Shown: piece by piece, positions 24,001-60,373 of the stretch | Layout: every line of letters starts with the position of its first letter | How positions within the stretch are numbered: the first letter of the stretch is position 1 | Assembly: GCF_964355755.1 (NCBI RefSeq) | Contig: NC_092678.1 | Span: 3,302,422-3,366,421, forward strand | Direction: 5' to 3' | DNA from: Antedon mediterranea | Taxonomy: Eukaryota > Animalia > Echinodermata | DNA: 64,000 bases | Notes under the pieces: model-generated | What the model saw: only the letters and a program-made list of their open reading frames with translations | Told to the model about the DNA's origin: nothing | Database searches by the model: none | Translations under genes and position numbers: made by a program

Positions 24001-27000
24001 ATTAGTATATTAAATACAATGTTGATTAAGTTGCGTAAATAATAATCTGTTCGCTTAAAAGTAGTTTTAGTTATTTTGTTTTTATATTTGTAATCTAGTG
24101 AAATGTAATTTTTGTACTTATTTTTCTATTCTACTTGTATTCCATTAAAATTAAATAAATTATTTACAGTCTTGTTGTCACCGCAATCAAATAAAGTATT
24201 ATTATTAAGACCAAGTTGAAGTATTTCCTTTTTTAAACTAGCTTTTCTTTAATTTAAATAATTGCCATCATCTATTTTAATTTATGTAACAGCGAATCAA
24301 GATATATAAGATTATAATATGCGCTATATAAGAATGAAATATTATTATTCTTATAGTATTGTATTTTTTATTTATTTTACATTTATTCGGTAATAAAAAA
24401 TCACAACAATCCCAGCGGGCAAACCGGTGATTTACAAATACAAAACAAAGAAGAACACAATAAAAAAAGCAAGCAAACAATCTTAATTACATATGAAAAA
24501 AAAAAACGAAAAAAAGAGATTATAAAAAAACAAAAAAAGGAGATGATAAAAAAACGGAAAAAGGAGATTATAAAAATATACTAAATTATTATTATTTACC
24601 AATTGAAACTATTTATTTTTCAGATGGCGAAAAGAAAGCAAACAAAAAAAACAACAAAGAGCGCCAAAATACCCAAACTAGATAAGGAACAGATTCCATG
24701 TTCTGACAATGAAACCAAAGAAAAGCAGGCAGCTATTAAAGACAATCAAAATAGTGTAGTCAATCCAGTGTCCGTCAATCCGAAGCCAGTCAATCCAACA
24801 AAGAGTGTAGTCAATCCAGTGTCCGTCAATCCGAAGCCAGTCAATCCAACAAAGAGTGCAGTCAATCCAGTGTCCGTCAATCCGAAGCCAGTCAATCCAA
24901 CAAAGAGTGCAGTCAATCCAGTGTCCGTCAATCCGAAGCCAGTCAATCCAACAAAGAGTGTAGTCAATCCAGTGTCCGTCAATCCAAAGCCAGTCAATCC
25001 AACAAAGAGTGTAGTCAATCCAGTGTCCGTCAATCCGAAGCCAGTCAATCCAACAAAGAGTGTAGTCAATCAACAAAATGGGGTGGTGAAAGTCATCTCG
25101 AAGTCTACTAATCCAACAAACAGAGTCGTCAATCCGGTGTCCTTCAATTCATCAAATAGAGTAATCAATTCGAAGTCTACCAATCCAACAAACAGAGTCG
25201 TCAATCCAGTGCTTGCTAATTCATCAAATGGAGTAGTCAACGCCAAGTCTATCAATCCAACGAACAAAGTCGTCAATCCAGTGCTTGCTAATTCATCAAA
25301 TGGAGTAATCAACGCCAAGTCTACTAATTCAACAAACGGAATGGTCAATTCAGTGTCTGCCAATTCATCAAATGGAGTAATCAACTCGAAGTCTACCAAT
25401 CCAACAAACAGAGTGGTCAATCCACCAGTGTCTGCCAATTCAACGAACAGAGTCATCAACCCAGTGCTTGCTAATTCTACAAACAGAGTGGTCGACCCAG
25501 TGGTGGTAAGTTCAACAGGCACTGTCAATGAAGGAGAAACTATTGTGTTTAGACCGAGTATAACAAGCAGTCCTGTTAATGCAACACCACAATCTGGAAG
25601 CACAGTAAGTTTCTGCCATTTCTACTTCCTTTATTTCTCGTCATTCCATTTTTTTATCTTCAGTTTCTGTGTTTGAATTCCCTGTATAATTGTTCTTTTA
25701 TCTCGATGTTCTCTTTTCATAGCTTTGGATGTTGTACTAGTAATTTTAAATAATCTTTATTTTTTCCATTTTGTCTTGTTAATGTTACAAAAAATGTTTT
25801 TTTTTCTCGTGTCAGTTTTTAAAAATCTAACTAAAATTAGTTCTTCAGTTTTAACAACAACCAATTTATCATTTACAACAATGTGAATAATTACAAATTT
25901 GATACTAAATATTTATCAATTTGTTTTAAAATAAATGAAAGTTGATTCGACAGCAAATAAATTGTCATACTGCAGGTAGAGTTATAGTTTCAAACTTTAT
26001 CATACTATAACAACCATCATGGTCAAACATAAACCCAGATTTGAGAGTATTTGATAGTATGTATGCATGCATTATTTATTTATCTTCTGTTTTTTAGACG
26101 ACACCAAGTAACGTTCAAACGACAGTGAACGAGCAAGTAAACTCTGCTGTTCCTCATACAAAACAGCTTCCGCTGCTCATAGCACCTGGTAGAAGAGGTT
26201 TCGTAAGTGTTGGTGATGTCTGTATTTTTTCCAACCTAACTGTGATGGTTTACGACATGATATACTCCAAAGCAGAAGGCATCATTGCCGGTTGTATTAT
26301 CTGTGTACCAGCAAATACAGGTTTGTTAGACAGAAAGAATTTTTGTACATTAAGCTGCCCTGTAAATGAATTAGACGTACTCCAGAATCCTCCAAGAAGT
26401 CAGCCACTCAGAACATTTGGTAAGGAATGTGCATCAAGATCACTGGAGATGGTGCTTATTGAATCTCTTGAAGCTGATTCTACCTATTTACACAATACCA
26501 ACAAATTTAGGCTCGGACATTTCTTTTGCGATTCCTTAGATAAGATTCTAGGACATAGAAGTTTACTTAACAGCTTCTATTTTCTGTACGATGATAAAGT
26601 ATTGCAATTGTTTGGACTGACAAAGGGAAATAATTTTTCTAAGACATTCTTTATGAAAAGCGACTTCCATCTTCTCGATCCTATCCTAGGATCACTCTGG
26701 GACGTGAAGCAGAATGGTGAGCTCACCTACTATGTCCAATCACTAAGATTATCCGTAGACGGTTCCATGATTGTTTGCTATGTGGATTTAACAACTACAA
26801 GGAAAAGATTATGCCACGACTACCGTTCTGTTTTTAGCTATAACACACTTTTGTTATAAGTATGTGCACAAATATTTTGTCGCAGTTTTGGTCGTAGAAT
26901 GTTCATGAGGTACATGCTTCTGCATATAGTTAATGTAAATAATTATTATAAACACTGATACACATGTTGCTAAATCATCTATGTTTTACTGGCTCTGAAT

Positions 27001-30000
27001 AAAGTTGATTCATGTTTTACTGCATATAAATAAAATTGCTATTGTTTTTTTAAAGTATTAGTTTGTGTTTTTTTAGCATTCAACGTTACTGTACAGTCTA
27101 ATCCTAGCCAGGTTTTCTACAAGTGGAAACTCCAAAAATGTTTTAAAACATTCCAGTCCTCCAAAAACTGGATACCATTGTAATAGTTTGGGTTTTTGGG
27201 ATATCTGGAACTTTTGAAAACTCTGATTTAGAGTTTTCTGTCATCTGTGATTTTTTATTGATGATAATAAATGTTTAAATATTGAATCAAAAACCAATAT
27301 TCATACCTCAGTTACTCTTTCCAAACATTTTTTAAGGAACTTTGTTTTAAGATGTTGCGGGATGAATCGATACGCCCCTTGGATACTTCCTTCGGACAAT
27401 GCTGCCACCGACTTGGTGTCAATTGAATCATGCAAAAGACTGTAGTATCTGAAATACAAGAAAAGACAACTATTTACCTGCAAATTGAAATCACGAATTT
27501 GAATAACGATACAGTGTCGTATCTGAAATGAAAAATGTACTATAACAAAAGTGCAACGCAAGTGATTGACCAATGACAAGCAACAAGTTAAATAATTCAT
27601 TTATTGTGATTGCTCAAACTACTTGCATTGCGCTTGTGTCCTAGTGGGAAGCAAGGTTTGATTTGAAGAAAATACATACAAAGCGATAACATAAATTACG
27701 GACATTACAAATAATACATTTATAAAAGGTTTTCCAGGATAGCCCAAAAAGCTTATCAGCTTATTTCCATTGGGATCCTTTACAATCTAAAATAAAAAAT
27801 ATAAACATTACAAAGTATTGCATTAAACACGTAAATATAACAAAAACAATAATATAAAAAACAAGTTAAATTAAAGACTATGATTGACTTATATAGTTAT
27901 TTGGTAGAACAGAAATGTGATTTAACATATTTCTTTAAATTAAATTTGTTTTCTATTTGCTGAATGGAATGAGGTAGGTTATTCCATGCCTTTATGCCTG
28001 TATAATAAAACGTTTTAGATATTTGACTATCAGATTTAGGAACTGAAAATCCATTGACACTACTTCTAGTCATATAATGGTGGTTAGATGAAACTCTTTC
28101 AGTTAAATAAGGTACTGATTTTCCATAAAAAATCTTATGAACATGATTAAGTTTGAGTTGGCAAATTCTATCCTCTAGACATAATTGACCGATTTGGTTC
28201 AGTTCGTCTTTACCAATATGTGCACGATTATTTTTATTTAATATAAACCTAGCAACTTTACAGACCACACAATTAAAATGCGGTTTAAGAAATCCAGAAT
28301 GATTAATTCAACCACTAAAAAATTATCAAGAATATGTCAGAAGGAGCCCACAAACATCGAGATGGATCAGTACACCGAGGTAACCGGTAACTACTCTTCT
28401 GTAAGATGTACTGGGCACACAAGCCAAACGTGTATACAATGAACCTCCAGTTTTAAGTTCTTGACTTGTATTACCATCAGAACTATGATGTAACATAGCC
28501 TTGAATCTGTGCTGATTTGATTTGAAGGCCAGGTGCGGGCAAAAAATTTCTATTGATCATACATTCCAATAATTATCGATCTATAGTTTCCCCTATGTTT
28601 CATAATTTTTTGGATTTTATTTGTGTTACACGAGCTTGTTGAAAATAAGCACTTTCTTATCAGTGGGTGGATAGTTCAAATTACACAGTAAAATCTCTAT
28701 TCTTTTGTACACAAATTTTGTAAATAGAGAGGCATTTTAAAAAGCTATGAAAAATAAACGGTGTGGTAAAAAATGTTATCAGATGACTAAATGCCATCCT
28801 GAGATGAGTAGTAGTAATTTTGTTTATTTTATTTATTTCATTTATATGTAATTTACTTTCTATGGACAAGAGTTTCCGAAATAAAAGATTGAATGAATGA
28901 ATAATATAACTTGAATTTTACATTTCTGGTATTTTTATTCAACTTCAGATTTTTATTTTCATGCTATAGCAAAAATTATCCACCGTATATCCACTAACTT
29001 TTTTCACCTTCTAGGGAGTCACCAGACATGTTATTACATTAGGTTAAACTACCTAACTACTAAAAAAAAAGTCTTCCTGGTTTTTATGGCAGAATTATGC
29101 CAAATTTTGTATTTGACCATATTAAGGGAAATTCATGTTTTTTCATCTTGATTTCTGTTACAAATATTTGATTTATGTACAATTAACCAGATATTATATT
29201 TAAAAGTATCTATGAAAGTATCTTTGCATACCTCTCTTTATCAGGTTCATCTGGTGTAGCAGGCCTTGAGAGACCTAGGGTAGAGAATGTGTAGGAAGGG
29301 AAGACGACACTAAGAACTGCTTTAGTAGGCTCATCAAATTCTCTGCTAGATTGTTCTATATCAATGGTGCCATTCAGTTTTGTGGGCTGAGAACCTGAAA
29401 AAAATTATAATTAAATATGTTAGATACCATAGGTCGTGCGTTTGATGTACTTGGTTTCTCGGAAACCTGGATAAATAAGAACACGCCAATTGACTTATTA
29501 AATATCAATGGATACAATATGTACACTTGTAATAGAGAAGGTAGAGTCGGTGGTGGAGTTTGTCTATATTTAAAAGAACAAATCAACACCGTAACACGTG
29601 ATGATTTTGTATTTAACGATAACTCCATTGATTCACTTTTTCTAGAAATAATAAACACAAACGGCAAAAATACTATTGTAGGTATGTTGTATCGACCACC
29701 AAATTCAAACGTCAACTCGTTTAAATCTGATCTAGAAGAAATCTTACATAAACTTAATCGCAAAAACAAAAACTGCTATATCTTAGGAGATTTTAATCAA
29801 GACTTATTAAAATATGACATTCAAAAAACAACACAGGAATTCACAAACATTATTTACTCAACATCTTTTAGTCCATTAATCAACTTACCCACCAGAATAA
29901 CATCGTCTTCTGCTACAATTTTAGATAATATTATTACAAATGATGATAACATTTCGCATTGTAGAGTAATAGTCACTGACATTACCGATCATCTACCCAT

Positions 30001-33000
30001 TTTCATGACAACACACTTGTCATTAAATACTAACACACAAGCTCCAATTACAAAACAAAAAATAATTAATGATACAACATTAAATAACTTGCTTATTGCT
30101 ATTTCTAATGAGGATTGGGGTGAACTATATTTATGCACAGATACCAATACATCATATAACCTATTTATTAAAAAACTATCCAATCTCATAGATAATAACA
30201 TACCTACAAAAAGTAATAAGCCAAATGGTAATACAAAGAAAAAACCATGGATCACAACAGGAATTTTGATTTCAATAAAAAAGAAAAATAAACTTTATAA
30301 AAAATACCTTAAAAACCCAACACAATTATTAAAAAATATATATAAAAAGTACAAAAATAAATTAACTCATTTAATTAGAATTCGGAAAAAAACAATATTA
30401 TTCCAAAAAACTGGATGCAGCTCGACACGATTCAAAGCAAACATGGAAAGTTTTAAATGAAGTTCTAAATAGAAAAAAATCGAGTGTTAAGCCAAATGAG
30501 GTAATTAACCATAGTAATAAAACTTTGGTATGTGATCCAAAAGGTATGTCTGACGCTTTTAATGACTTCTTCTCCAACATTGGAAATGAATTAGCAAACA
30601 AAATACCAAATGTAAACAATTCTGACTTTAAACAATATATGAGAGAGAGTCAATCCCAATCCATATTTTTCAATCCTACGAATGAAGAAGAGGTCATTGA
30701 AATAGTTAGTCAAATCAAAAATTCAAATTCAGAAGGTGTTGATAACTTAAGTAATCGCATTCTAAAACATATTATTGCTGCTGTGGCATCTCCTCTTGTA
30801 CATATCTTTAACCTCTCTCTTGAGACAGGCATGGTCCCTGATAGTATGAAAGTAGCTAGAGTAGTTCCAATTTTTAAATCTGGCAATAAAAGTGACGTCA
30901 GTAATTATAGGCCGATCTCTATTCTGCCTACCGCTTCAAAAATTCTTGAAAAAATTGTTCAAATTAGAGTAAATAATTATATCACAAAGTTTAACATCCT
31001 TAATAATGCACAATATGGTTTCAGAAAAAACAGTTCTACTTTTATGGCCGTTATAGATCTGGTTGAACGAATAACCGATGCGCTTGATAAGAAAAAAAAT
31101 ACCATCGGAATATTTATTGATTTGTCAAAAGCGTTTGACACCATCAACCATGATATACTTCTTAAAAAATTGGAACACTATGGCATAAGAGGCACGGCCC
31201 TTAAATGGTTTAGAAACTATATTAATGGAAGGAAACAATTTACGTCTATTGATAACACAAGTTCGTGTTTGATGGATATAAATTGCGGTGTACCACAGGG
31301 TTCAATTCTGGGGCCTCTACTTTTTATTTTGTACATTAACGATGTATTTAATTGCTCAAACTCGTTATCTTTTGTTTTATTTGCTGACGACACAAACATA
31401 TCTGCATCTCACGAAAACTTGGATACGCTCATAGAACTAGTTAATGGTGAACTAAAAAATGTTTCGGATTGGTTCATGTGCAATAAACTATCAATCAACG
31501 TTAAAAAAACTAATTACATAATTTTCCGCAATCAGCGAAATCCAAGTAATTTAGAGAATGTAAATATTTATGTCAACAATAAAAGAATAGATAGAGTTAA
31601 ATCGACTAAATTCCTTGGAGTACATATTGATGAATTTCTCACATATAAGAACCACATCAATGTTACAGCTAGGAAAATATCTCGATATGTAGGCATACTA
31701 TATAAAGTAAGACATTTTTTACCAACCTATGCTCTCTGGACAATATACAAATCACTCATTGAACCAGTATTAAATTATTGCAACATAATATGGTGTAGCA
31801 CATTTCCAAGTTATTTAGATGAGTTATTTAAACTCCAGAAAAGGGCATTACGAGCTATAACATGGTCAAAGTTTAATGATTCAATGACTGAATGTTTCTA
31901 TAAATTTAAACTTCTTAAAATTGCGGATATCAATAAGTACCAAATTGGGCTTTTCATGTATAATGTTACTACTAATCAGGACGTGCGTTTTTCATCGCTC
32001 TTTATTAAAAATGGTTCTTACCATAATTATAATACAAGATCTAAAGACAAAATGATACTCAGAAAACGTAATCGTACTTCTACTAGTTTTACTGTGTCAT
32101 GTGTGGGACCCAAATTGTGGAATGACTTGAATTACGAACTACAAAGTACCAAATCAATATATATATTTAAATCATTGTTTAAAGAACATTTATTATCATT
32201 TTACAAATAATTTTAAAAATAATACTTGTTGCAGGATTTAGCTTTTTTTATTATTTATGTTTTAGGTTTTTAGGCTAGTTTTTAGGGACATAGGGGGACA
32301 CAACTAATCAAGCTCTTTTGAGTTTTTATGTGTTTCCTTTTCATCTTTTTTATGTTCTCATATATTGTTGTTGTATATTTTCATGATTGAGGATGAATAA
32401 AGAATATTTGAATTTGAATTTGAAATATCAAGGACAATTACATTTGAGTTTATTGTGATAAATATTTCTGACACAAAAAAAATGAAAAAATTATTGAACT
32501 ATATATTGTTGAATAATGATTCATATAGGCAGACAACGTACATTTCCATTCTCAGACTTTATGACCCCATTTATGATTATGATTGGGTCCTGGACCGCTC
32601 CAGGATCGTGTCCAAATTTAATTGTTTGGTGTTTACCCTTGGATTCCAAATGATGGCCTTTACTTCAATTTCTTAAGCCCTTGGTCACGGTTCACTGCAT
32701 AGGTTGGCCCAAACATAAAAGTTACTCCTGGATCCACCTGGGCAGGCCCAAATCGTAAGTGTAAAAGGGGTCTATGATAAAGAAGGCTGAGTTGGTTTGT
32801 ACGTACCATTACTTTCAGGGGAACTTGATGAAATGGAAGACCCATTCTGTGATTGTCTTCGAACATTGCATGCCGACCCGGTCCGACTAGAACGTAGGCG
32901 AGGACTTGACAATGGTCTTGGATTCAAACCTGCTTCAAGGCGGTCGCTGAGATCTTGGCGTGGACTCAACGGTCCAAATCGGGGTGAAATGTCATCTTGA

Positions 33001-40736: not shown

Positions 40737-41219
40737 CAAATATTTCCCCACTAAAACGAATATTGTACAAATACGACTTTCAGATAAATATCATAATAAT
40801 CATTACATCTCGAGTCTAGTTTATGTCATTTTACAAACTTCTAGAATGTTGCATTAGAAAGTTCCAATACAAGTCTGCTTTGATTTTAGTAGCTAACACC
40901 TTGTATTGTATTGCTAAGGAAGTATATAGAGGGCGCTATATCATTTTATACTATAATACACAGTTATCATAGTATTTGTGCTTTAATGGCTGTTTGCATG
41001 AAATCTGCTTTTCAGCCTGCTTTTTATAAAACATTTTAGCAGTCTGCCATCGAAAGCTGTCTAAATCATTCTTTACAAAATGAATACAAAAAAACATATT
41101 GCAACACAATTTATTTATTACAACAGATTGTAAATAAAAATATTTCATTAAATATACACCATCACATAAACATTAAAAAGGTACAGAATCTTTCCTGTTA
41201 AAATAGAGTTCAGTTGTTG

Positions 41220-41291
41220 ATTAAACTAATCCTCAAGCAAAGCCTCCTCATCAGTGATGAGTTTAAAACTCTACTATCATTTTTTCTAATA
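41220..41291 (-). promoter_or_regulatory. SECIS element (eukaryotic type II)
   Basis: Minus strand: ATTAGA aaaa A TGAT AGTAGAGTTTT AAA CTCATC act GATGAG GAGGCTTTGCT TGAG gattag TTTAAT. This gives helix I ATTAGA/TTTAAT, the AUGA/GA non-Watson-Crick core, an 11-bp helix II fully paired with G-U allowed, unpaired AAA and a 6-bp apical minihelix. AATAAA lies about 100 nt downstream (about 41114-41119). Confidence 0.85.
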
Positions 41292-41410
41292 CAAAAAACT
41301 GAAAATTATTCTGTAGAAAGAACAAATATGAAGAAACATTTTTTAATTCATTTCTCAGTATTTTACAATTAAATTGGTTAATACAAATGTGTAATTAATA
41401 CTATTTCTAA

Positions 41411-41541
41411 ACCTCTGTCAACACTATGAAACTAGTTTGTCGAGAAGTGTGATATACCCAAATATGTTAGTGATATGACATCATCGTGTCCTTATATGGG
41501 CACATCACATTTTTTTGTCTGGTAAAATTTGATAATGTAGG
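41411..41541. mobile_element. MITE family A copy (degraded)
   Basis: Family A left TIR and internal motif. Confidence 0.65.
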
Positions 41542-41921
41542 TTAAATCCTAAAATCAAGGTTACGTTTTCAATTTTAATTGATTCACAATTTTTAATGAA
41601 TCAAATTCTTTTTTTTACTGTAAAATGATCACTTTATGATTTAAAAATAAATTGTAAATATGTAAGTATGACAAAACAAATGGATGGAGCTACAGTGAGA
41701 AAAAGAAGTCATCTAAGAATCAAATTTAGAATATTCTTAGTGTGAATAATATGTTCGATAACATAATCTAAAATGCAGCATTTAGCAGAAATTTAATCCC
41801 TGAAGCTCTAATAAGTAGTATTATATAATAATTTATTCTATTATTTTACATATATCTACATAATCGGTAAAATTTCTTCATGTTTGCTGTTCTGTACTAT
41901 AAGTTTTTTCTCCGTAAAAAT

Positions 41922-42653
41922 TTAGTTTGAATGGCTGTATAATTCATTATACTCTGGCGGCGGAGCGCTAGGCACCACATCAGTTGACTGGGCCGGGGTA
42001 GCAATGTACGTGGTTTGTGTGGGCTCTGAACACATTGGTGCACCGTGACCTTTGGTCTTCTTACCTGAAAGAAAAATATCAAATATAATATTAAGTATAA
42101 AAAGCTTTATTTTATTTGAGAAAAACTATTAGCAGTATTACACTTTATGAAATTTGGTTTATGTATGTAGGAATATAACAGGAATTGGAGGGTGCATGGG
42201 TAATATTAATTGGGGTTCAATTTACCCGTCTTTAGGACGCAACCGGAGGATGAGGCGGTAGTTTGCTTCTCATCAGAATCGGATCCTTTGACGGCTTTGG
42301 TGACCTTATTCTTCACGTAGCCCACCGCTGTTGATAAAACCAAATTGACACATATTATTACATAGGCCTACGATAATCAATAGTTTTTATTACTCCACAA
42401 TGCTGTGGTTTTATTATTATATATAGCCTAGATAGTACAACAATAAAGTCACCTTTAATACTACCCAAATATCATTAGGCCTAGGCCAACAACTTAACCC
42501 TTTTAAAGCTCACTCTGCAGCCCAATTCCGTGTACTTAATTAACCCACTAAGGGCTCTAAACAAAGACCAGATAGGCCTAAACAAAAAGTCATTATTTAT
42601 ACTATTATATTTTGTTTACAAACAAACTTACCATCAATTATTAGTCACACCAT
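41922..42653 (-). CDS. Candidate novel small selenoprotein, 88 aa, Sec at residue 3, C-terminal PSAP/PPxY motifs
   Basis: Exons 42632-42653, 42226-42327 and 41922-42064 (GT-AG, phases 1/1) give MVULIIDAVGYVKNKVTKAVKGSDSDEKQTTASSSGCVLKTGKKTKGHGAPMCSEPTQTTYIATPAQSTDVVPSAPPPEYNELYSHSN*. Strong Kozak context aagATGG; in-frame TGA at 42645-42647; SECIS in the 3' region. Confidence 0.75.
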
Positions 42654-43307
42654 CTTCTTTAAACAGTTTTACCCAATTTACAGGGTTTATTTTCGTTTAA
42701 TTATATTAAAAATAGCTTGTTTTATGAGGTGCAAATTATGTGCTAAGTGACTACTCAGCATCAGATGACGTAAGATAAACAAACTCTGCTGCCCTCTATG
42801 TTTTTAATTTGCAAAGCTTAAAGGGTGACTCCGGGTTTAAAATTTGTGAAATTAAAAAAAAAACAAACTTGTGTTTAGTTTTGATTTAAGTATTTTTATT
42901 TACATATTACAAATTAAAAAAAATTGCAAAGTTTGGCACTCGAATCAATAAAAAAAAGTTTAGGATGATAAAAAATAAACTAAAAAAAACATCGGGAAAA
43001 CAATCTTATAATATTGAATAGAGTATTGCACACTTCGATAATGGGGACATATCTAACTATGTACACTCTAAATCTTTGTGACAAAAATTGATTAAGAAAA
43101 TAAATAAAGAACATTGAATATTCACAAACTTATTATTATTATACAACTCTTCATTAATATGTTTTCCAAAAAGAAAGTTTTATTTTCTGTACAGTTCAAC
43201 AAAAATGTCACTAGCAGGATTTGTACCAGCGACCTCTCACTAACAAGGTGTGTGTCATACCGTAAAACCATATTCCATTGTTCAGTACTCAGTGTATATT
43301 ATAGTCT

Positions 43308-46300
43308 TTAAGCACAAATAATTGTGTCATCCATCTTGTAAGCTGTGTGTTGATCTCTCCTCCACAGCGATTTGTCTATATCTTCACTGTTACTGTTTCT
43401 ATCTACGACAACGATAACATCTTCATATTTTGGTGGCGGTGGCTCCGTCACCTGATTACCAGATCTCGGTCTCAACACGACTTGTTCATACGACGGTGGA
43501 CGATCATGATACAGTTGGTTTCTGTGATTGACACTCTGGTCGGGATAATTTCCTGGCCATGCTTTAAAAAATATAATTATAACAAATCATTAAAATATTC
43601 AAAGTATCAAAACATGTTTGTCAAATTGCTTTTTATCAACATAATAAAAGTTATATATAAAAAAGTAAAGCAAGTCATAAAACTTCATCGTGTTTAAAAG
43701 AGCGCTCACTTCTTTTCTACGTGTACGATTATCTTCTGAGTTTAATATGATCTGGCCCCTCAGACAATAATCTTGAAATATCTATCTTCATTTGTAATTT
43801 TGATGACGTCATCGTTTAAAAAATTGGAATAAAAGATGGGTCTCGTAATTTCATCTATAGTACACTGTATAAATTACATACTGTATATTTTTTATATTTT
43901 TAATTATTCTTATACCGTCACGTCTCTCCCAAAATTTTGATTTTATTCTTTGAATTGATGCTTATTAAAAACAAAAATATTGGTACAGTTTTAGAGACTG
44001 TATTACAGGTAATGTACAACTAGAGAGCTAAATGACATATTACATCTCCATACTAGTGGATTGCTTTTGTTTAGTTGTATTAGCTGTTAGACATACATTT
44101 TCTTTTGCACTTGTAAATCATGTAGATTATTATCAGCAGACAAACTGGAACGATCATTGTCAATAGGTACTGTGTCTTGCTACCAGAAACAGCAGTAAGA
44201 TTATTCACTGAAATATAAAAACAATGTTATATAAAAAATATATATATTTAAACAAAGTCTATTTTTTTAATGATAAATGTTGCAAACATCTGCTTTTTTA
44301 TTTGAAAAAAAGGTCTAAACTATTAGAGGCATATATGATAATGTATAAAGTTTGGTTCACCCTAGGACGTAATGCAACGTAAGCAATTTAACCAATCACA
44401 AGTAATAGATTATCCAAATTTTTACTGGTGATTGGTGAATTCGCTTGCGTGATGTGCCAATATACAGACATGATGATGTCATATCACTACCATATTTGGG
44501 TATATCACTACCATGGTATATCACTACCATATTTGGGCACATCACACTAGTTCGATAGTGTAGACAGAGCTTTAGTCTTGATGCAGACCTCACCTTCAAC
44601 CTGTTTCTGGATGCAGAATTCACCAGTATAAAGTGGCGGACAGTGACAGTAATAGCCATCTTGTGAATGGTAACACGTTCCTCCATTAAAACAGTGGTTC
44701 TGCAGAGGGCATTCATTTATTGTTCCTGTAAAATCTAATGGAAGAGAAAGAGGATTAACATTCAGTAATCAATGTCAAATCTTGCCATTAAGCAGAACTC
44801 CAAACACTTTAGTTTAAGTGAGTGAGTGGCCAAGAGTTTAAGTGAGTGAGTGGTCGAGAGAGCGGAACCCTAATATGTAGGCATAACATTGGCAAGCGAT
44901 TAAGGCTCACTCGCTTCATTGTTCTTATCGGATAAGGCTATAAACCGTAGGTCCAGTGTACACATCCAGCTCATGTGAGAGAGATGGTGCAAGACCTGTC
45001 TGTGGAATTTACTTGTTTTCTCATTGCCTCGTCTTTTGAGTGAAGCATAAACCACAGTTGGTTTTATGTACATACAATGCACATGGAAAGAGTTTGGGAT
45101 TGTCTCTCAGTGTGCTGATCATGGCTCCACACTGAGAGAACGGTCTTGTACTAAAGAGTTCATTTAGTGTGGCTCCACACTGAGAGAACGGTCTTGTACT
45201 AAAGAGTTCATTTAGTGTGGCTCCACACTGAGAGAGCGGTCTTGTACTAAAGAGTTCATTTAGTGTGGCTCCACACTGAGAGAACGGTCTTGTACTAAAG
45301 AGTTCATTTAGTGTGGCTCTACACTGAGAGAACGGTCTTGTACTAAAGAGTTCATTTAGTGTGGCTCTACACTGAGAGAACGGTCTTGTACTAAAGAGTT
45401 CATTTAGTGTGGCTCCACACTGAGAGAACGGTCTTGTACTAAAGAGTTCATTTAGTGTGGCTCCACACTGAGAGAACGGTCTTGTACTAAAGAGTTCATT
45501 TAGTGTGGCTCTACACTGAGAGAGCGGTCTTGTACTAAAGAGTTCATTTAGTGTGGCTCCACACTGAGAGAACGGTCTTGTACTAAAGAGTTCATTTAGT
45601 GTGGCTCCACACTGAGAGAACGGTCTTGTACTAAAGAGTTCATTTAGTGTGGCTCCACACTGAGAGAGCGGTCTTGTACTAAAGAGTTCATTTAGTGTGG
45701 CTCCACACTGAGAGAACGGTCTTGTAATAAAGAGTTCATTTAGTGTGGCTCCACACTGAGAGAGCGGTCTTGTACTAAAGAGTTCATTTAGTGTGGCTCT
45801 ACACTGAGAGAACGGTCTTGTACTAAAGAGTTCATTTAGTGTGGCTCCACACTGAGAGAACGGTCTTGTACTAAAGAGTTCATTTAGTGTGGCTCCACAC
45901 TGAGAGAACGGTCTTGTACTAAAGAGTTCATTTAGTGTGGCTCTACACTGAGAGAGCGGTCTTGTACTAAAGAGTTCATTTAGTGTGGCTCTACACTGAG
46001 AGAGCGGTCTTGTACTAAAGAGTTCATTTAGTGTGGCTCTACACTGAGAGAACGGTCTTGTACTAAAGAGTTCATTTAGTGTGGCTCTACACTGAGAGAA
46101 CGGTCTTGTACTAAAGAGTTCATTTAGTGTGGCTCTACACTGAGAGAGCCGTCTTGTACTAAAGAGTTCATTTAGTGTGGCTCCACACTGAGAGAGCGGT
46201 CTTGTACTAAAGAGTTCATTTAGTGTGGCTCCACACTGAGAGAACGGTCTTGTACTAAAGAGTTCATTTAGTGTGGCTCCACACTGAGAGAACGGTCTTG

Positions 46301-49300
46301 TACTAAAGAGTTCATTTAGTGTGGCTCCACACTGAGAGAACGGTCTTGTACTAAAGAGTTCATTTAGTGTGGCTCCACAATGAGAGAGCGGTCTTGTACT
46401 AAAGAGTTCATTTAGTGTGGCTCCACACTGAGAGAGCGGTCTTGTACTAAAGAGTTCATTTAGTGTGGCTCCACACTGAGAGAACGGTCTTGTACTAAAG
46501 AGTTCATTTAGTGTGGCTCCACACTGAGAGAGCGGTCTTGTACTAAAGAGTTCATTTAGTGTGGCTCTACACTGAGAGAACGGTCTTGTACTAAAGAGTT
46601 CATTTAGTGTGGCTCCACACTGAGAGAACGGTCTTGTACTAAAGAGTTCATTTAGTGTGGCTCCACACTGAGAGAACGGTCTTGTACTAAAGAGTTCATT
46701 TAGTGTGGCTCTACACTGAGAGAGCGGTCCTGTACTAAAGAGTTCATTTAGTGTGGCTCTACACTGAGAGAGCGGTCTTGTACTAAAGAGTTCATTTAGT
46801 GTGGCTCTACACTGAGAGAACGGTCTTGTACTAAAGAGTTCATTTAGTGTGGCTCTACACTGAGAGAACGGTCTTGTACTAAAAAGTTCATTTAGTGTGG
46901 CTCTACACTGAGAGAGCCGTCTTGTACTAAAGAGTTCATTTAGTGTGGCTCCACACTGAGAGAGCGGTCTTGTACTAAAGAGTTCATTTAGTGTGGCTCC
47001 ACACTGAGAGAACGGTCTTGTACTAAAGAGTTCATTTAGTGTGGCTCCACACTGAGAGAACGGTCTTGTACTAAAGAGTTCATTTAGTGTGGCTCCACAC
47101 TGAGAGAACGGTCTTGTACTAAAGAGTTCATTTAGTGTGGCTCCACAATGAGAGAGCGGTCTTGTACTAAAGAGTTCATTTAGTGTGGCTCCACACTGAG
47201 AGAGCGGTCTTGTACTAAAGAGTTCATTTAGTGTGGCTCTACACTGAGAGAACGGTCTTGTACTAAAGAGTTCATTTAGTGTGGCTCCACACTGAGAGAG
47301 CGGTCTTGTACTAAAGAGTTCATTTAGTGTGGCTCCACACTGAGAGAACGGTCTTGTACTAAAGAGTTCATTTAGTGTGGCTCTACACTGAGAGAACGGT
47401 CTTGTACTAAAGAGTTCATTTAGTGTGGCTCCACACTGAGAGAACGGTCTTGTACTAAAGAGTTCATTTAGTGTGGCTCCACACTGAGAGAACGGTCTTG
47501 TACTAAAGAGTTCATTTAGTGTGGCTCTACACTGAGAGAACGGTCTTGTACTAAAGAGTTCATTTAGTGTGGCTCTACACTGAGAGAGCGGTCTTGTACT
47601 AAAGAGTTCATTTAGTGTGGCTCCACACTGAGAGAACGGTCTTGTACTAAAGAGTTCATTTAGTGTGGCTCTACACTGAGAGAACGGTCTTGTACTAAAG
47701 AGTTCATTTAGTGTGGCTCTACACTGAGAGAGCGGTCTTGTACTAAAGAGTTCATTTAGTGTGGCTCCACACTGAGAGAACGGTCTTGTACTAAAGAGTT
47801 CATTTAGTGTGGCTCTACACTGAGAGAACGGTCTTGTACTAAAGAGTTCATTTAGTGTGGCTCCACACTGAGAGAACGGTCTTGTACTAAAGAGTTCATT
47901 TAGTGTGGCTCCACACTGAGAGAGCGGTCTTGTACTAAAGAGTTCATTTAGTGTGGCTCTACACTGAGAGAGCGGTCTTGTACTAAAGAGTTCATTTAGT
48001 GTGGCTCTACACTGAGAGAGCGGTCTTGTACTAAAGAGTTCATTTAGTGTGGCTCTACACTGAGAGAGCGGTCTTGTACTAAAGAGTTCATTTAGTGTGG
48101 CTCCACACTGAGAGAACGGTCTTGTACTAAAGAGTTCATTTAGTGTGGCTCTACACTGAGAGAACGGTCTTGTACTAAAGAGTTCATTTAGTGTGGCTCC
48201 ACACTGAGAGAGCGGTCTTGTACTAAAGAGTTCATTTGGTTTTAAGAATAAAAATAACAATAGAATGTTTTACCGTTTACTTTGATAAATTCACAAGTTC
48301 GTCCGTAGTAGTCATCGGGACAGACACAGAATGGAGTGGCGTAGATTGTGTCTCGGCAAGTACCTCCATTCTCACAGTACATGTCATGACACCCTAGTAT
48401 GTATCAAATTAAATATATAAATTGAAAAAAATAGTATAAATTCATCAGCTGTAGCTATTGTCAAAATTTTTAACATACAAAATAGATTTAGTGTCGATAC
48501 AATGCATTTGGTTTCACAGCCTTGTTATATTAAGTACTTACCATTCGAGCGTGTGCATCCAAGTGCAAAATATCCCGGAGCACATTGGCAACGAAACTGA
48601 CCATTGGTCAAGGCCTGGCAGGTACCACCATTGGAACATGTCACTCCTTGACAGGCTGTTAAATCTAGAAAAAAAAAACCAAAGAAATATATTACCATAC
48701 CACTTTGGTTTGAGCCTAGCCCTCTTAAACAGAAAAGTAGTGTCAAAGCATTTATGTACATTTTAAAAATTTGGTCTTAATATTTGGAGGCGGGCGTAGT
48801 GTATCTGTCAGTACAGTACTATGTTTGGTAAAATATAATTTTATTTCAAAATCATATGTACTGTAAAGGGCATGCAAGTACATACCATTCTCCATACCAA
48901 ATTCAAACACACCCTCTATTCCATGAGGCGATTCCTTCAAATCCTGGGAGCGTATACGCATGTACAGGTTGTTCTTTTTTGAGTTGATAGTGAAGTTACG
49001 CTGTAGGTTTGTAGTGAGCCAATTGCCTTCGAGAAGGATGGGAGATTTAGAGGTCAAGCCATCAAGAACTTGTATGTATAGGATTATGCTGTCAATTGAA
49101 CCTATGAAGAAAGAAAAACATTTTTAATAAGGTCGAGTCAAGTTGCTAAGCAGGTCAAGACTGGCACAGGGCCAAGGCTCTCCTCAACTGGTGGTAGAAT
49201 AAGTCTTCCTGGGTGAGGATTGCACTTTAAAGAACCTAGCACATCTTACAAAATCGTAGAGGGTTACCCCAGTGTACTGGTCATTCCATCTCAGCTCGTT

Positions 49301-51893
49301 GTTTGAGGAAGGCAATGTAGGACCTAATCCAAGTTTCCTAAATTGAAGGATGTTTGTTGTGGGTTAGAGTCCCATGCACGATTTATAGTACTTGCAATGG
49401 TTTTGAAAAATGTTCTAAATGAAACTTACTGGGCTCCTTGTGTAACACTACTTCAACCATTAATGCAGTTTATGGCTGTAAAATCATTGTTGTACCATAA
49501 TTAGGATATACTTACTGATGTCAACATCAATGAATAGAGTGAGGATGTGATCAGCACTAAATAACCACAACACATCAAAGTCTTCTTTGTACTGGCGTAT
49601 TGGAAAGCTAACCGGCGTTTCTAAATTCTCTGAAGTCATGACTGTTTCAACTGAAAAAGAAAACCGTATCAAATATATTAATCCATAAAAAAAACTAGCC
49701 AAGTACATGTTAAATTTACCTTTTTTTATTTAAAATATAAACTGGTCATAATTACAGTATGATAAGACAAACAAATTGTTAGTAAGGGAACCAACAAGAG
49801 TGGGGTAAGTGTCATTAATTATCAATGCACAATGTAGAAAAGAATTTACCCTGACATACCATAACACATAATAAATAGCTTGACGCCAATGGGAACCTCG
49901 CTAAAATACAAATTAATTAAGGAGAGTTATGATATTGGAGAATGTAATAAAATACTGTACATGATATCAAGCTGGGAAATAACCTCTTCATATGAAATAA
50001 CTTAACGCTTAAAGAGCATAAGGTAACCACAATAAAAAACAGCTATTCAAAACAGCCTTAAGCTCTGTCTACACTATCAAACTAGTTTGACATACAAAGT
50101 GTGATGGGCCTAAATATGGTAGTGATATGTCCAAATATTGTAGTGATATGACATTATCGTGTTGATATATGGGCACATCACATTTTTTTGTCGCATAAAG
50201 TTTGATAGACAGACAGAGCTTTAGCCTAGAATAAACCACAATCTAGATATACTTACCCACCGTATTGCTAACTTGTACATGAGGGGGCATAGACTTGTAA
50301 CTTGCACGAAACCCAGAATATTCATATCCCAAGTATTCCGATCCTACAATGTATTCAATGTACATCATTTCGGATGAAACAAATTCCAGAGGTCTTTCAG
50401 AATTTATTCTATATTCTCCAAGCAAAGGGAAACTTGCATTTTCACCATCATACACCTATAGGGAAAACGTATGATATAATATTAATTAATTATTAATTAA
50501 TTAATTCACATCATGCTCTAAAATGAGATACCATCCAATGCCTGCATGCAGACTAAAAGGCTAAACAGATGAGCGGTAACAGTAACAACAATATAGAATC
50601 TATGTTATTTCTTATGACCATTTACACACAACGCACACGAATGGCCAGGATAGATACAGGATTCTGTGTCCGACAAGCTACGCAGTTTTCCCGGTTGTCT
50701 GTGTAAATTGGCCTTAAGGGTATGTTCAGACCTATATAGTTATGATATTGTATAATAAACCGATACAACATTTTAATCTGTATCTTAACAACTCAGAATC
50801 ACTCAACTAATGTATTCATTGTTTGGTTGGTGATTTCGTTGAAACTCGTAAAATGTGTCTTACGCTAATCTCTACCTTGAGCTTTTGCATAAAACTTGAG
50901 GCCAATGTTGTAGCATTTTTTTAGTTCAGATTGATACTAAACAATTACACTGTAGGTGTGAACAGGTCCTAACCTACAGTACCTTGATTTAGGTGTGAAC
51001 AGGTCCTAACCTACAGTACTTTGTTTTTGGTGTTAACCGGTCTTAACCTACAGTACTTTGGTTTAGGTGTGAACAGGTGCTAACCTGTACTTTGATTTTA
51101 AGTGTGAACAGGTGCTAACCTACCTTTATTACATCATTCTTCTCACAGTCTATATCACCTTTACAGACTGTTAAGAAGTCATCAAATATCAAGTAAATCT
51201 GCCAATTTTCCAGGTGTGATTTTAGTCGATATGTACAGGTGTAAGGTCCAGGTGGTCGCACAAGAGGAAAATCTGGAGATTGAATCGTTTTCTTGCTCGA
51301 TTCTGTTGTCAACTGTGTGGTCTGCGTACAAGCTGTGGACAAAAAGGAAAATGATTTTTGTTAACTGAAATTTTATTCATATATGCTTATTTTAAACTGA
51401 ATAGCAAGAACAAAAATTGTAATAAACAATGCAGGCAGGTGTGAAGGTTCATTCTTTAATTGTAAAGCTATAACATTTCATGTTGCTATAGAAACAAGGG
51501 GTTGTCACTGTAACATCAATTAATGTGGAGAAGCACACCTGTCGTCGTGGCAACCTTCAAACTCGACTCAACGAAAGAAGGTTACAAATCAGTAAGCAAT
51601 GCCAAATACACGGATAGAGTAAACATGAAAACCCAATCAAGCAGATCAAGATTATCATGTATATTATTTGTCTTCTTAAGAACGCAATTCTTCTCAATGT
51701 CTCTGTAATTCATACTTTTAAATTACGGACATAAATTTTAATATCATATAAATCAATGAATACTTTTTACAATATGCATTTATTTTTATGTCTCAATATT
51801 CTGAATAGTTACCAAGAAATGAAAGTTACAAAGTTACTTACGATTTCCAAAGACAATAGCCAAGTACACGCTGAACCATAGTAACACGAGCAT
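43308..51893 (-). CDS. Single-pass membrane protein of about 512 aa: signal peptide, CUB, CUB-like, 3 EGF-like, TM, cytoplasmic PPxY motifs
   Basis: Exons 51842-51893 (MLVLLWFSVYLAIVFGN), 51124-51332, 50257-50455, 49516-49650, 48898-49101, 48542-48664, 48274-48393, 44594-44725, 44097-44207 (TM YLLTMIVPVCLLIIIYMIY-KCKRK) and 43308-43561 (PPSY, PPKY). CUB motifs IQSPDFP..C.Y, VYDG, GFRASY; EGF pattern C.NGGTC..C.C..G..C. Phases are consistent. Confidence 0.8.
44455..44571. mobile_element. MITE family A partial copy
   Basis: Right TIR gatagtgtagacagagct and internal motif. Confidence 0.65.
45121..48237. repeat. 48-bp minisatellite, about 65 highly homogeneous units, intronic
   Basis: Unit GTGGCTC(C/T)ACACTGAGAGA(A/G)CGGTCTTGTACTAAAGAGTTCATTTAGT; lies between EGF exons 48274-48393 and 44594-44725. 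Confidence 0.97.
50061..50220. mobile_element. MITE family A copy, TTA TSD
   Basis: tta|agctctgtctacactatcaaact ... gatagacagacagagct|tta. Confidence 0.8.
50954..51123. repeat. About 37-bp tandem repeat, 4-5 copies, abutting a splice donor
   Basis: taggtgtgaacaggtcctaacctacagtac(c/t)ttgatt units ending at the donor of exon 51124-51332. Confidence 0.75.
51482..51495. promoter_or_regulatory. RFX X-box motif in intron 1 of the CUB-EGF gene
   Basis: GTTGCTATAGAAAC, a close match to the 14-bp X-box palindrome. Confidence 0.45.
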
Positions 51894-54386: not shown

Positions 54387-57300
54387 TTAGGAATGCGGGT
54401 CATAAGGATTTTGATAAAATGAATTGTATAGATGCCAATATGGTGCATTCCAATAATATGGCCCTGTGTACCACCAGTTAGTATTATAGAAGGGTGATCC
54501 ATAATATTGACCCATGTGGCTCATTTGATGCTGAAAGGAGCCTGAATTATCATAGTTATAATACGATTGGTAGTCACTATAGTTATAATAAGACGAGTTA
54601 TTATAATATGAAAGGTTGTAGTCATGTGATCTATCATGTGATGTGTGAGGGTCACCAGAATATCCATATGCATAGTCATGTGATATGTGAGGGTCACCAG
54701 AATATCCATATGAATAAGAATCCATGTTACTATTGTTATTATATAAAGGATACATATTATTATAGTAGTCGTAATATGCAGATGTATCACAAATTCCATC
54801 ATCCGTTAGTTTAGTATTTTTTTTCCTTCTTTGTTTTCTTTTGTTTCTCAACATTTCTTTGTTTTCATCCTCATCAATACTTGTTCCATTCGTTTCTGAC
54901 ATTTGGTAATATGTTTTCACTTCACTGTTTTCTGATTTTTCCTTTCTTTGTTCGCTACTCAATTTAGAATACTTTGCGCCGATCTGGACAACTACTCCAT
55001 CTTTAACAATAAAAATATCGCTTTCCGATTTGTCGCCCTCTTCAAAACATTCATCCTTTTCAGAAGTGCCATCATCAGTGATATTGGTAGACTGTTGGTC
55101 ACTATAATGCGATTCCACATCAATGCTAGTTTCAACTGATTGTTCTTCCCATTTTAGCTCACTTTCTTCATCCAGAATCTCAATTTCTTCTTCTTTCCTC
55201 CGAAACACGGTATTTCCAGTAGAATCAACAGACATCCTTGAAATGTTGTCAGCATCTACATTTTTCTGACAAAAGTCAGCTTTAGGTTCCTTTTCCACAA
55301 TTGTATTATCTGTAGTTTCTTTTAACTTTATAGAATGAAATAATTGATCGCTTTGCTCTGTTTCGTATACAGAAGAATTGAATTCACTGCAAACATAAGG
55401 TATAACAGATTCCTTTGAAAATGATTTAGTTTTTTCTTTATTCAACAAAGTAAGATTTGCTTTATAAGTTTGTTCTTCCAAAGGTAACATACATTCTTCA
55501 ATTTTATCTTCTCTGTATTCCTTCTGAAGTAAACAAGGACCAGGGGACTCTTCAACAAATAAATTATTTTCAGTAGTTTCGTTCATGATATGAAAGTTAT
55601 CATTCAAATTAATTTCTTCTGATTGATTCTCATTGGTTTCTATGTCACAATGCTCCAAAATAATACTTTTCTTAGAATTAGCTTCTTGAAGTTCTGAATA
55701 ATCATTGTTTTTTATATAGGAGTTACAGCTAGTATTCTCAATCACTGTATTTCCAATCTCACCTGTACTTAAAAAATGTCTAAAGTCTTTCACAGCATCT
55801 GCAAACGACCATTTTGGAGATCTTCTCAAGCCTAAAGTTTCTTTTAATGATGGTATCTCAGAGGTTATGATACTAAAAACGGAATTTGGGTCAATTGTCT
55901 GACAGCCTTTATCTAACATTACTTTCTGTAACGTTGATATCTTCCGGATAGCACCAGTATTGGACCTAATTTTATCCAAATGAATCATTGTGTCATTTGC
56001 CAGAAAAGAATCGTGTCCGTTAAAAGAGGTTGCAGAATCTTCGGAAATTATGCGGGATGGTGATGCACTTCCTTTTGACGTTGTACTGAGCTGTTTTAAG
56101 GTCACTGCTTTTTCTACACATTTTTGTGTTGTAGTAGATGCACCGTCTGTCTTTATAGCAGCAACTCCAACATTTGGACTTAAAAGGTCAGAGGGCACTG
56201 GATCTGAAAGAACAACAAAGAAACTTAAGATCAGAACCTCCACATAAGAGCACAATTTGGCACTTCTACTTTACTTTAAATTCTTTGAGGAAATATGTAA
56301 AATACTATAGTGTTACAATCCTTGATATCGTAGATAACTTTATGATGACGAGGCAAATATTAGAATTATGGAGACATTGTGCTCATACAAAGAACTTGTC
56401 AATTTCATCATAGTTCTAGATGGCAAACCAACACTAGTAAACTTTAAAGCAACATTTGCAACATACAATGTGTATTAATTCATATAGAGCAAATCCCATA
56501 TAGATATGTTTAAAAGACTTTATTACCCCGGTTATTTTTAACAAGCCAGTTATCAGCGAAGTTGGTGCTTCGACCTAAGCAGGTAACCATTTGTACACCT
56601 GTATACTAAGTATGGACTAGATTGATCAGACAATTGTGGAGGCACTTTGGAATAATGTAAAGCTCTGTCAACACTATCAAACTTTATGGGACAAAAAAAT
56701 GTGATGTGCCCATATATGGACCTGATGATGTCATATCACTACCATATTTTGTCAAACTAGTTTGATAGTGTAGACAGAGTTTAAGAATCATTTGTGAGCT
56801 AACCTGGTAATGGGCGAATAGGTACATGACACTCTTTCTGGATGCTGTGAAGCAAGAGTTCTTCTCTACCGAAACTAGCGAGTGTTATTGAAGCGCCATA
56901 GGTTCCAAATCGTCCAGCTCTGCCAATGCGATGCATGTACGTTTTGACATCAACTGGTACATCCAGATTGATCACTAGGTTCACCTTCTCAGCGTCAATA
57001 CCTCTTGCAGTCTGAAAGATCATAGTTTAACAAAATCTAAGCTGTAATTAGGCTATGAGGGCTCACTGGCCAAACCACCCAGAGGCCCCACAACATAACA
57101 GTCCCAATACTAACTAACCAGCATTGAAGGGCCTAGGAGTGCTAAATATTTTCAATTTTATTGCCAGAAATAACCACAACAATGACATTTAGAAAATGGA
57201 CAATAGGTTAATAAATAGATATTGAACACAAATTTGATAGTTTACCAGATCAGTTGAAATGAGAACTCTGCATTCAAACTTCTTAAACGTTGACATTGCG

Positions 57301-60300: not shown

Positions 60301-60373
60301 TTTCCTCATTTAGAACATCATCTGTCCTAGGCCGTATTGTTATATCATGTGCAGTTTTCATTCCAGTGTTCAT
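54387..60373 (-). CDS. DDX20: DEAD-box RNA helicase DDX20 (Gemin3), about 1007 aa
   Basis: Exons 60175-60373, 59239-59502, 58692-58803, 58174-58316, 57605-57743, 57246-57387, 56804-57011 and 54387-56203. Motifs: [90 protein letters not shown]; long acidic C-terminal tail ending in a Tyr/Trp-rich segment. Confidence 0.93.
56661..56781. mobile_element. MITE family A copy, TAA TSD
   Basis: Family A TIRs; a further partial copy lies at about 57447-57560. Confidence 0.8.
57940..58130 (-). mobile_element. tRNA-derived SINE (same family as 33576-33814)
   Basis: Reverse-complement match to the core (gtactcatttacagct) and tail (gtaggggaatgagc). Confidence 0.65.

Follow-up and report, generated by a model that had tools for sequence, protein, structure and literature searches.

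The window analysed here is the whole 64-kb (64,000-nt) stretch of DNA from the crinoid Antedon mediterranea, and all positions given are those of the window. On its minus strand lies a small gene of three exons separated by two GT-AG introns, as defined by one spliced contig of the sequencing run X1, and the features of this gene are collected in Table 1. Upstream of it, a gene for a CUB/EGF single-pass membrane protein (43308-51400, minus strand), which carries two PPxY motifs in the tail of its product, is spliced in X1 at a depth of 30 and ends ~220 nt before the small gene. Because the upstream gene has its own stop and there is a gap in the X1 cover between the two genes, the small gene was regarded as a separate unit. 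A tandem array of 48-nt units that spans 3.2 kb (45021-48269) has a minus-strand frame open for 1,082 codons and apparently lies within an intron of the CUB/EGF gene. Elsewhere in the window, a DDX20 gene (54390-60373, minus strand) encodes a protein of which residues 401-1007 (the C-terminal 607) are 99.8% identical to an Antedon mediterranea protein; one of its exons matches that protein at 98% identity, and the next match for that exon, from a brittle star, is at 80%. The only match in the window at the gathering level of Rfam is that to the lncRNA family RMST_9 (9060-9252, minus strand; 74.4 bits), and the exon under this match has a translation that we take to resemble an axonemal dynein heavy chain, which suggests that the Rfam family was derived from dynein coding sequence. 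Opposite this dynein gene, two related genes on the plus strand (18296-19872 and 24585-26859) each have a repeat-rich first ORF and a second ORF of ~255 codons, the second ORFs being 44% identical to each other with no Pfam match. A LINE-like element (29411-32210, plus strand) has two ORFs in overlapping frames, which are presumably endonuclease-like and reverse-transcriptase-like, respectively.

Table 1. Features of the small minus-strand gene and its 3' UTR, in window positions.
Feature	Position	Strand	Description and basis
Exon 1, RNA-covered part	42632..42715	-	62-nt 5' UTR without ATG, codons 1-7 and one base; X1 contig
In-frame TAA	42669..42671	-	18 nt upstream of ATG; closes the frame upstream
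Start ATG	42651..42653	-	A at -3, G at +4; sequence
In-frame TGA, codon 3	42645..42647	-	Sequence; putative selenocysteine codon (recoding inferred)
Intron 1	42328..42631	-	304 nt, GT-AG, phase 1; joint in X1, none in X5
Exon 2	42226..42327	-	102 nt, 53% GC; codes for a basic amphipathic segment and for a low-complexity linker that includes Cys37; X1 contig
Intron 2	42065..42225	-	161 nt, GT-AG, phase 1; joint in X1, none in X5
Exon 3, coding part	41922..42064	-	Ends in TAA at 41924-41922; X1 contig
Met52 ATG	42033..42035	-	Only downstream in-frame ATG, weak context; would yield a 37-residue peptide
High-copy dispersed repeat, 90-150 nt	41393..41540		Inside the 3' UTR; 13 HSPs by blastn in the rest of the window; summed depth >100,000
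Form 2 (type II) SECIS	41210..41302	-	Helix I, AUGA 41280-41277, 11-bp helix II, AAA 41264-41262, 6-bp minihelix, GA 41234-41233; fold and pattern search
AATAAA, likely poly(A) signal	41114..41119	-	Sequence; X1 depth 0.3 in bin

The region was covered by five sequencing runs (X1-X5), none of which is on record as RNA; the GT-AG joints in X1 are the reason why it was treated as RNA. The RNA evidence comes from this single run, the kind of which is guessed, and the DNA runs represent one sample, which may be the source of the assembly. A single 714-nt X1 contig with a depth of 626 joins 42715-42632, 42327-42226 and 42064-41539. Both of its joints, which leave out 304 and 161 nt, read CT..AC on the plus strand (GT..AG on the minus strand), the DNA run X5 has neither of them, and the X1 depth is near zero in the intron bins of the gene. 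This contig upholds the three GT-AG exons and the 88-codon ORF that had been proposed in a first-pass annotation of the locus, which had also described the start as ATG GTG TGA in a strong Kozak context with a TAA 18 nt upstream, in agreement with the sequence. An alternative donor of exon 2 at 42244, which would result in 82 codons, was ruled out because the X1 joint sets the donor at 42226. The ATG at 42653 is the first ATG in the RNA-covered mRNA (mRNA index 62), and, when the UGA is read through, the frame in the spliced X1 sequence is open for 88 codons to the TAA at 41922 and forms the only substantial ORF of the gene. The TGA at codon 3 exhibits no variant in both of the two runs X1 and X5 and none among the variants listed for X2-X4; hence an assembly error at this codon, which the first-pass annotation had named as a possible source of the signal, is ruled out by the two former runs. 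The ORF contig passes four earlier AATAAA/ATTAAA words unbroken in X1. At 25-60 nt upstream of the RNA start (42741-42773, minus strand), there are words that we take to be CRE-like and antioxidant-response-like, and an X5 variant at 42770 sits in the former.

The CDS has a GC content of 50%, whereas the values for the UTRs are 23% and 25% and those for the introns 32% and 25%. Codons 4-51 are accessible from an AUG only through the UGA, and their coding score is 9.1 bits, the mean for the coding exons of the window being 9.4 and that for non-coding sequence being -8.0 with an sd of 5.5. This score is matched by 28.6% of base shuffles, indicating that the signal is compositional and not frame-specific; another frame scores 9.8 but with 5 stops. 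For codons 52-88, which are in exon 3, the score is 7.2 in their own frame, compared with -2.3 and -6.2 in the other frames. A UGA read-through ORF of at least 88 codons was found in 659 of 20,000 shuffled mRNAs. The 8 variants listed between 41100 and 42715 all fall outside the CDS, which is a weak indication, as the chance probability is ~0.2.

The hairpin in the 3' UTR exhibits a helix II of 11 bp with zero mismatches, an unpaired AAA, a 6-bp apical minihelix, a UGAG, and an internal loop next to helix I. It folds at -24.8 kcal/mol with a z of -2.6, and 1 of 200 shuffles was equally stable. The fold and the pattern search agree in supporting the type II SECIS claimed in the first-pass annotation (AUGA..GA core, 11-bp helix II, AAA and minihelix), and the definition of the form 2 SECIS, as given in the accessible text of PMC2673426, matches the hairpin at 41302-41210. 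The annotated placement past the stop and before an AATAAA was also retained, with the distance from the ORF stop, previously given as ~630 nt, now measured as 641 nt; the distance from the UGA to the SECIS on the mRNA is ~900 nt. An Infernal comparison with Rfam, which had been suggested as a check, gave a full-length alignment to SECIS_1 (RF00031), but with 22.7 bits and an E of 0.12, the gathering score being 35, so that the element is missed by Rfam at default settings. The SECIS pattern occurs at one site only on both strands of the window (128 kb in all). Its loose and strict versions were found in 1 and 0, respectively, of 3,000 shuffled UTRs, and in 51 and 0, respectively, of 205,821 simulated UTR-sized pieces, these chance rates flattering the element somewhat because the thresholds were chosen after it had been seen by eye. 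The DNA depth over the SECIS is that of the flanking single-copy sequence, indicating that the element is outside any repeat. Two SECIS variants (X1 and X4) that change a G-U to an A-U pair were considered as support and discounted, because 38 of 64 transitions keep a pair.

With regard to the arrangement of the two parts on the transcript, an X1 contig at 41161-41439 covers the SECIS at a depth of 857, which is similar to the 626 of the ORF contig, the contig depth being a rough measure. The high-copy repeat in the 3' UTR breaks the RNA contigs, and hence no single record joins the ORF and the SECIS. Short X1 contigs overlap one another across the repeat (41410-41478, 41469-41519 and 41510-41568), and none among the X1 contigs bridges it by at least 31 nt on both sides. 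The SECIS contig carries an 11-nt deletion at 41359 and was not aligned at 96% likeness, probably because of that gap. It is likely that the ORF and the SECIS are present on one mRNA.

Homologues were searched for using single-exon, low-complexity pieces of the product, with the whole spliced protein and residues 1-7 excluded, in collections with no crinoid genome or transcriptome among them, and the blanks are therefore weak. By word search, no homologue was found for the exon-3 piece among proteins of 36-118 aa or for the exon-2 piece among those of 29-93 aa, and phmmer with the 39-residue exon-2 piece gave 0 matches at E 0.001 among 1.84 billion representatives. Neither exon piece matched an entry in the ESM Atlas, NCBIfam or PDB, or a Pfam model at E up to 1, SelK/SelS/SelW-type models included. 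Pattern searches of JGI metagenome contigs gave 592 and 589 matches, none of which was confirmed, and no paralogue was found in the window. A near-identical product of the gene was not found in the searched length bands, though the collection includes Antedon mediterranea proteins. Because of the stop at codon 3, such a gene product would be rarely entered in protein databases, and the blank searches fit a missed, lineage-restricted gene. According to the available text of PMC3753652, most known selenoproteins have Cys homologues, and TGA/Cys conservation is the strongest test for a new selenoprotein. A search of the literature within reach found no report of selenoproteins in crinoids and none of Sec as the third residue; subscription journals and supplements, which were outside this reach, could include an echinoderm selenoproteome with the candidate. 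The view that the product belongs to no known selenoprotein family, as stated in the first-pass annotation, is consistent with the blanks in Pfam, NCBIfam and PDB and with the absence of the product from the family lists compared; its description as a protein of non-thioredoxin fold likewise agrees with the blanks in Pfam and PDB and with the presence of Cys, apart from position 3, at residues 37 and 53 only.

Taken together, an in-frame UGA is located in a transcribed and spliced ORF and is followed downstream on the same strand by a SECIS with the GA quartet, helix II and apical As, as found in eukaryotic selenoprotein genes. On a base of one species and one RNA run, we therefore regard this as a transcribed three-exon crinoid gene, of no family found in the searches made, in which the UGA at codon 3 is probably recoded to Sec by the form 2 SECIS that is likely to be in its own 3' UTR. 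We also consider there to be a good chance that its product, with Sec as the third residue, represents a selenoprotein family that is new. In the main alternative, the UGA is the true stop of a two-codon uORF (ATG GTG TGA), the product, if any, is the 37-residue peptide with PSAP and PPEY translated from Met52 after leaky scanning or reinitiation, and the hairpin either arose by chance or is unused. This would be in line with the finding that short uORFs favour reinitiation (PMC9661723, in the text available), the location of both motifs and of the clear frame-specific codon bias only after Met52, the lack of homologues found, and the Rfam score below the threshold. However, it needs a SECIS to have arisen by chance, on the right strand, with a quality seen in none of the 205,821 simulated UTRs, and 48 stop-free GC-rich codons to continue the uORF frame past both splice joints, and Met52 is in a weak context with two out-of-frame AUGs before it. 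We hence regard a true stop at codon 3 as rather unlikely.

It seems improbable that the gene descends, with decay or strong divergence, from the gene of a known selenoprotein or membrane protein (it might, for instance, have been duplicated in part from a receptor with a PPxY-containing tail and have gained a SECIS) and that its read-through product has no selected function. The EGF/CUB gene upstream ends in two PPxY motifs, and its tail can be weakly aligned with the product, with the local score reached by 53 of 2,000 shuffles and the global score by 123 of 2,000. This likeness, which is not significant, hints that the gene could have originated by partial duplication, and the lack of homologues found outside would be compatible with such an origin. 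The likeness was, however, noticed post hoc and is driven by PPxY, blastn shows no DNA similarity, and neither exon piece has a Pfam match at the permissive limit used; the SECIS is, moreover, intact, and the CDS is free of the listed variants, the latter being the weak indication described above. That the SECIS serves another transcript or frame, which might be the upstream EGF/CUB gene or a +1 frame that has an AUG and then a UGA at codon 6, could be suspected from that frame and from the lack of a record linking the ORF and the SECIS but is highly improbable, because the last three exons of the upstream gene are open to its own stop, its X1 contig (depth 30) ends at 42939 with an X1 depth of 0 between 42759 and 42930, and the AUG of the +1 frame is in a weak context and, given the splice supported by RNA, this frame runs into a TAA after 32 codons.

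Under the favoured reading of the codon-3 UGA as a Sec codon, the product is predicted to be an 88-residue, largely unfolded protein. Its first 46 residues are net basic, the hydrophobic moment peaks at 0.49 in residues 5-22, and no transmembrane helix was found, the best 19-residue hydropathy being 0.99. In the acidic tail, the flexibility of which is suggested by its composition, PSAP (residues 73-76) directly precedes PPEY (77-80) at 41949..41972 on the minus strand, and the PSAP and PxY motif types were found together in 47 of 200,000 shuffles, in a count made post hoc. Single-sequence AlphaFold predictions for each exon piece (pTM of 0.13-0.14, no secondary structure) were uninformative. 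The first-pass annotation had been silent on the PSAP/PPEY pair and the amphipathic N-terminus, which are the only functional clues.

By analogy with established eukaryotic Sec decoding, an SBP2-type factor bound to the SECIS and eEFSec would deliver the Sec-tRNA at the second elongation step, and SBP2 is known in sea urchin (PMC2673426). If Sec decoding failed, the ribosome would stop after two codons, and reinitiation might then be possible at the weak downstream AUGs, two of which are out of frame and the other of which is the in-frame Met52. Since start-proximal stops evade NMD and favour reinitiation, as described in the accessible part of PMC9661723, the mRNA would not necessarily be destabilised by the UGA at codon 3. 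The efficiency of Sec insertion can depend on the position, as in the case of Euplotes SelW, in which position 9 is less efficient than position 85 (PMC3737529), and codon 3 is therefore not guaranteed to work. In mammals, Sec decoding is limited by collisions with trailing ribosomes (PMC12632765); a ribosome stalled at codon 3 would still cover the start codon, so that, as we infer, no elongating ribosome could follow. As for the protein, residues ~3-22 may form a basic amphipathic helix on the membrane, Sec3 may be a redox or acylation site that controls membrane anchoring, and the PSAP-PPEY tail may recruit TSG101/ESCRT-I together with a ligase of the NEDD4 family, in the manner described or predicted for this motif pair in LITAF. 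A function as a peripheral-membrane ESCRT/NEDD4 adaptor, and not as an enzyme, with Sec3 serving as the switch through redox chemistry or acylation, is accordingly no better than a tentative suggestion, for which short motifs are the basis. Equally speculative, and somewhat doubtful, is a new class of animal selenoproteins that are not enzymes, with Sec at residue 3 of an unfolded adaptor of the ESCRT/NEDD4 type; in it, AUG-GUG-UGA might operate as a selenium switch that selects either the full-length product, anchored to the membrane, or a short tail peptide arising from reinitiation, with escape from NMD and no collision with trailing ribosomes.

The animal selenoproteome is treated as nearly closed, with ~20 families (PMC3473315 and PMC13134290, in the text available from each). 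If our reading is correct, a new family that has no redox fold would reopen this list, and it would expose a blind spot, in that finders based on homology depend on a homologue with Cys or Sec (PMC3753652), and what gene callers detect of the candidate is no more than a remnant of 37 codons. A UGA two codons after the start should also serve as a test of whether Sec insertion works at the second elongation step and as a test of the recent collision model of Sec decoding (PMC12632765), as no elongating ribosome can queue behind codon 3.

With eukaryotic selenoprotein genes that have a form 2 SECIS, as described in PMC2673426 and RF00031 to the extent available, the candidate shares the in-frame UGA and a 3' UTR hairpin with the tandem GA quartet, helix II, unpaired As and an extra apical helix. 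It differs from eukaryotic selenoprotein genes in that its UGA is codon 3 and that no redox box, fold or Cys homologue was found; the earliest natural Sec position met in print, among families not fully surveyed, is 9, in Euplotes SelW (PMC3737529). Antedon, as a marine invertebrate, would be expected to have a rich selenoproteome like those of the marine invertebrates in PMC3473315. The layout of the candidate is found in none of the 21 marine-invertebrate families in the part of that article available or of the 19 vertebrate families in the corresponding part of PMC13134290, and the candidate fits none of the three new algal families as outlined in PMC7539508. LITAF/SIMPLE is similar as a small membrane-associated protein that has, in a flexible region, PPXY, a site for NEDD4 WW domains, next to P(S/T)AP, a site for the TSG101 UEV domain; binding of the pair to NEDD4 WW domains is described in the accessible text of PMC5142333, and that to TSG101 is predicted there. 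The likeness to LITAF is one of motifs only, as the candidate lacks the LITAF zinc domain (no Pfam match), has the motifs at the C-terminal end, which is the opposite polarity, and exhibits no sequence similarity in the comparison made. More generally, the combination of P(S/T)AP and PPxY in a flexible region, as in ESCRT-NEDD4 adaptors with PSAP and PPxY, is present in the candidate at the level of motifs. Compared with the thioredoxin-fold selenoproteins (SELENOW/T/H/V/M/F/U/L/P, GPx, DIO, AhpC and DsbA), the candidate has no box of the CxxU/UxxC type and no Pfam or PDB match. SELENOK and SELENOS each have one transmembrane helix, and their Sec is adjacent to the C-terminus. The candidate differs from these two in that it has no transmembrane helix, would have Sec at residue 3, ends in TAA with no late UGA, and has no Pfam match. 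It resembles them, however, as they are described in the available text of PMC13059024, in that they are small and largely unstructured and tied to membranes and ubiquitin pathways and, in the case of SELENOK, also to palmitoylation. SELENOK, with this link to palmitoylation, is the nearest functional precedent (PMC13059024) for a small selenoprotein of the kind proposed here.
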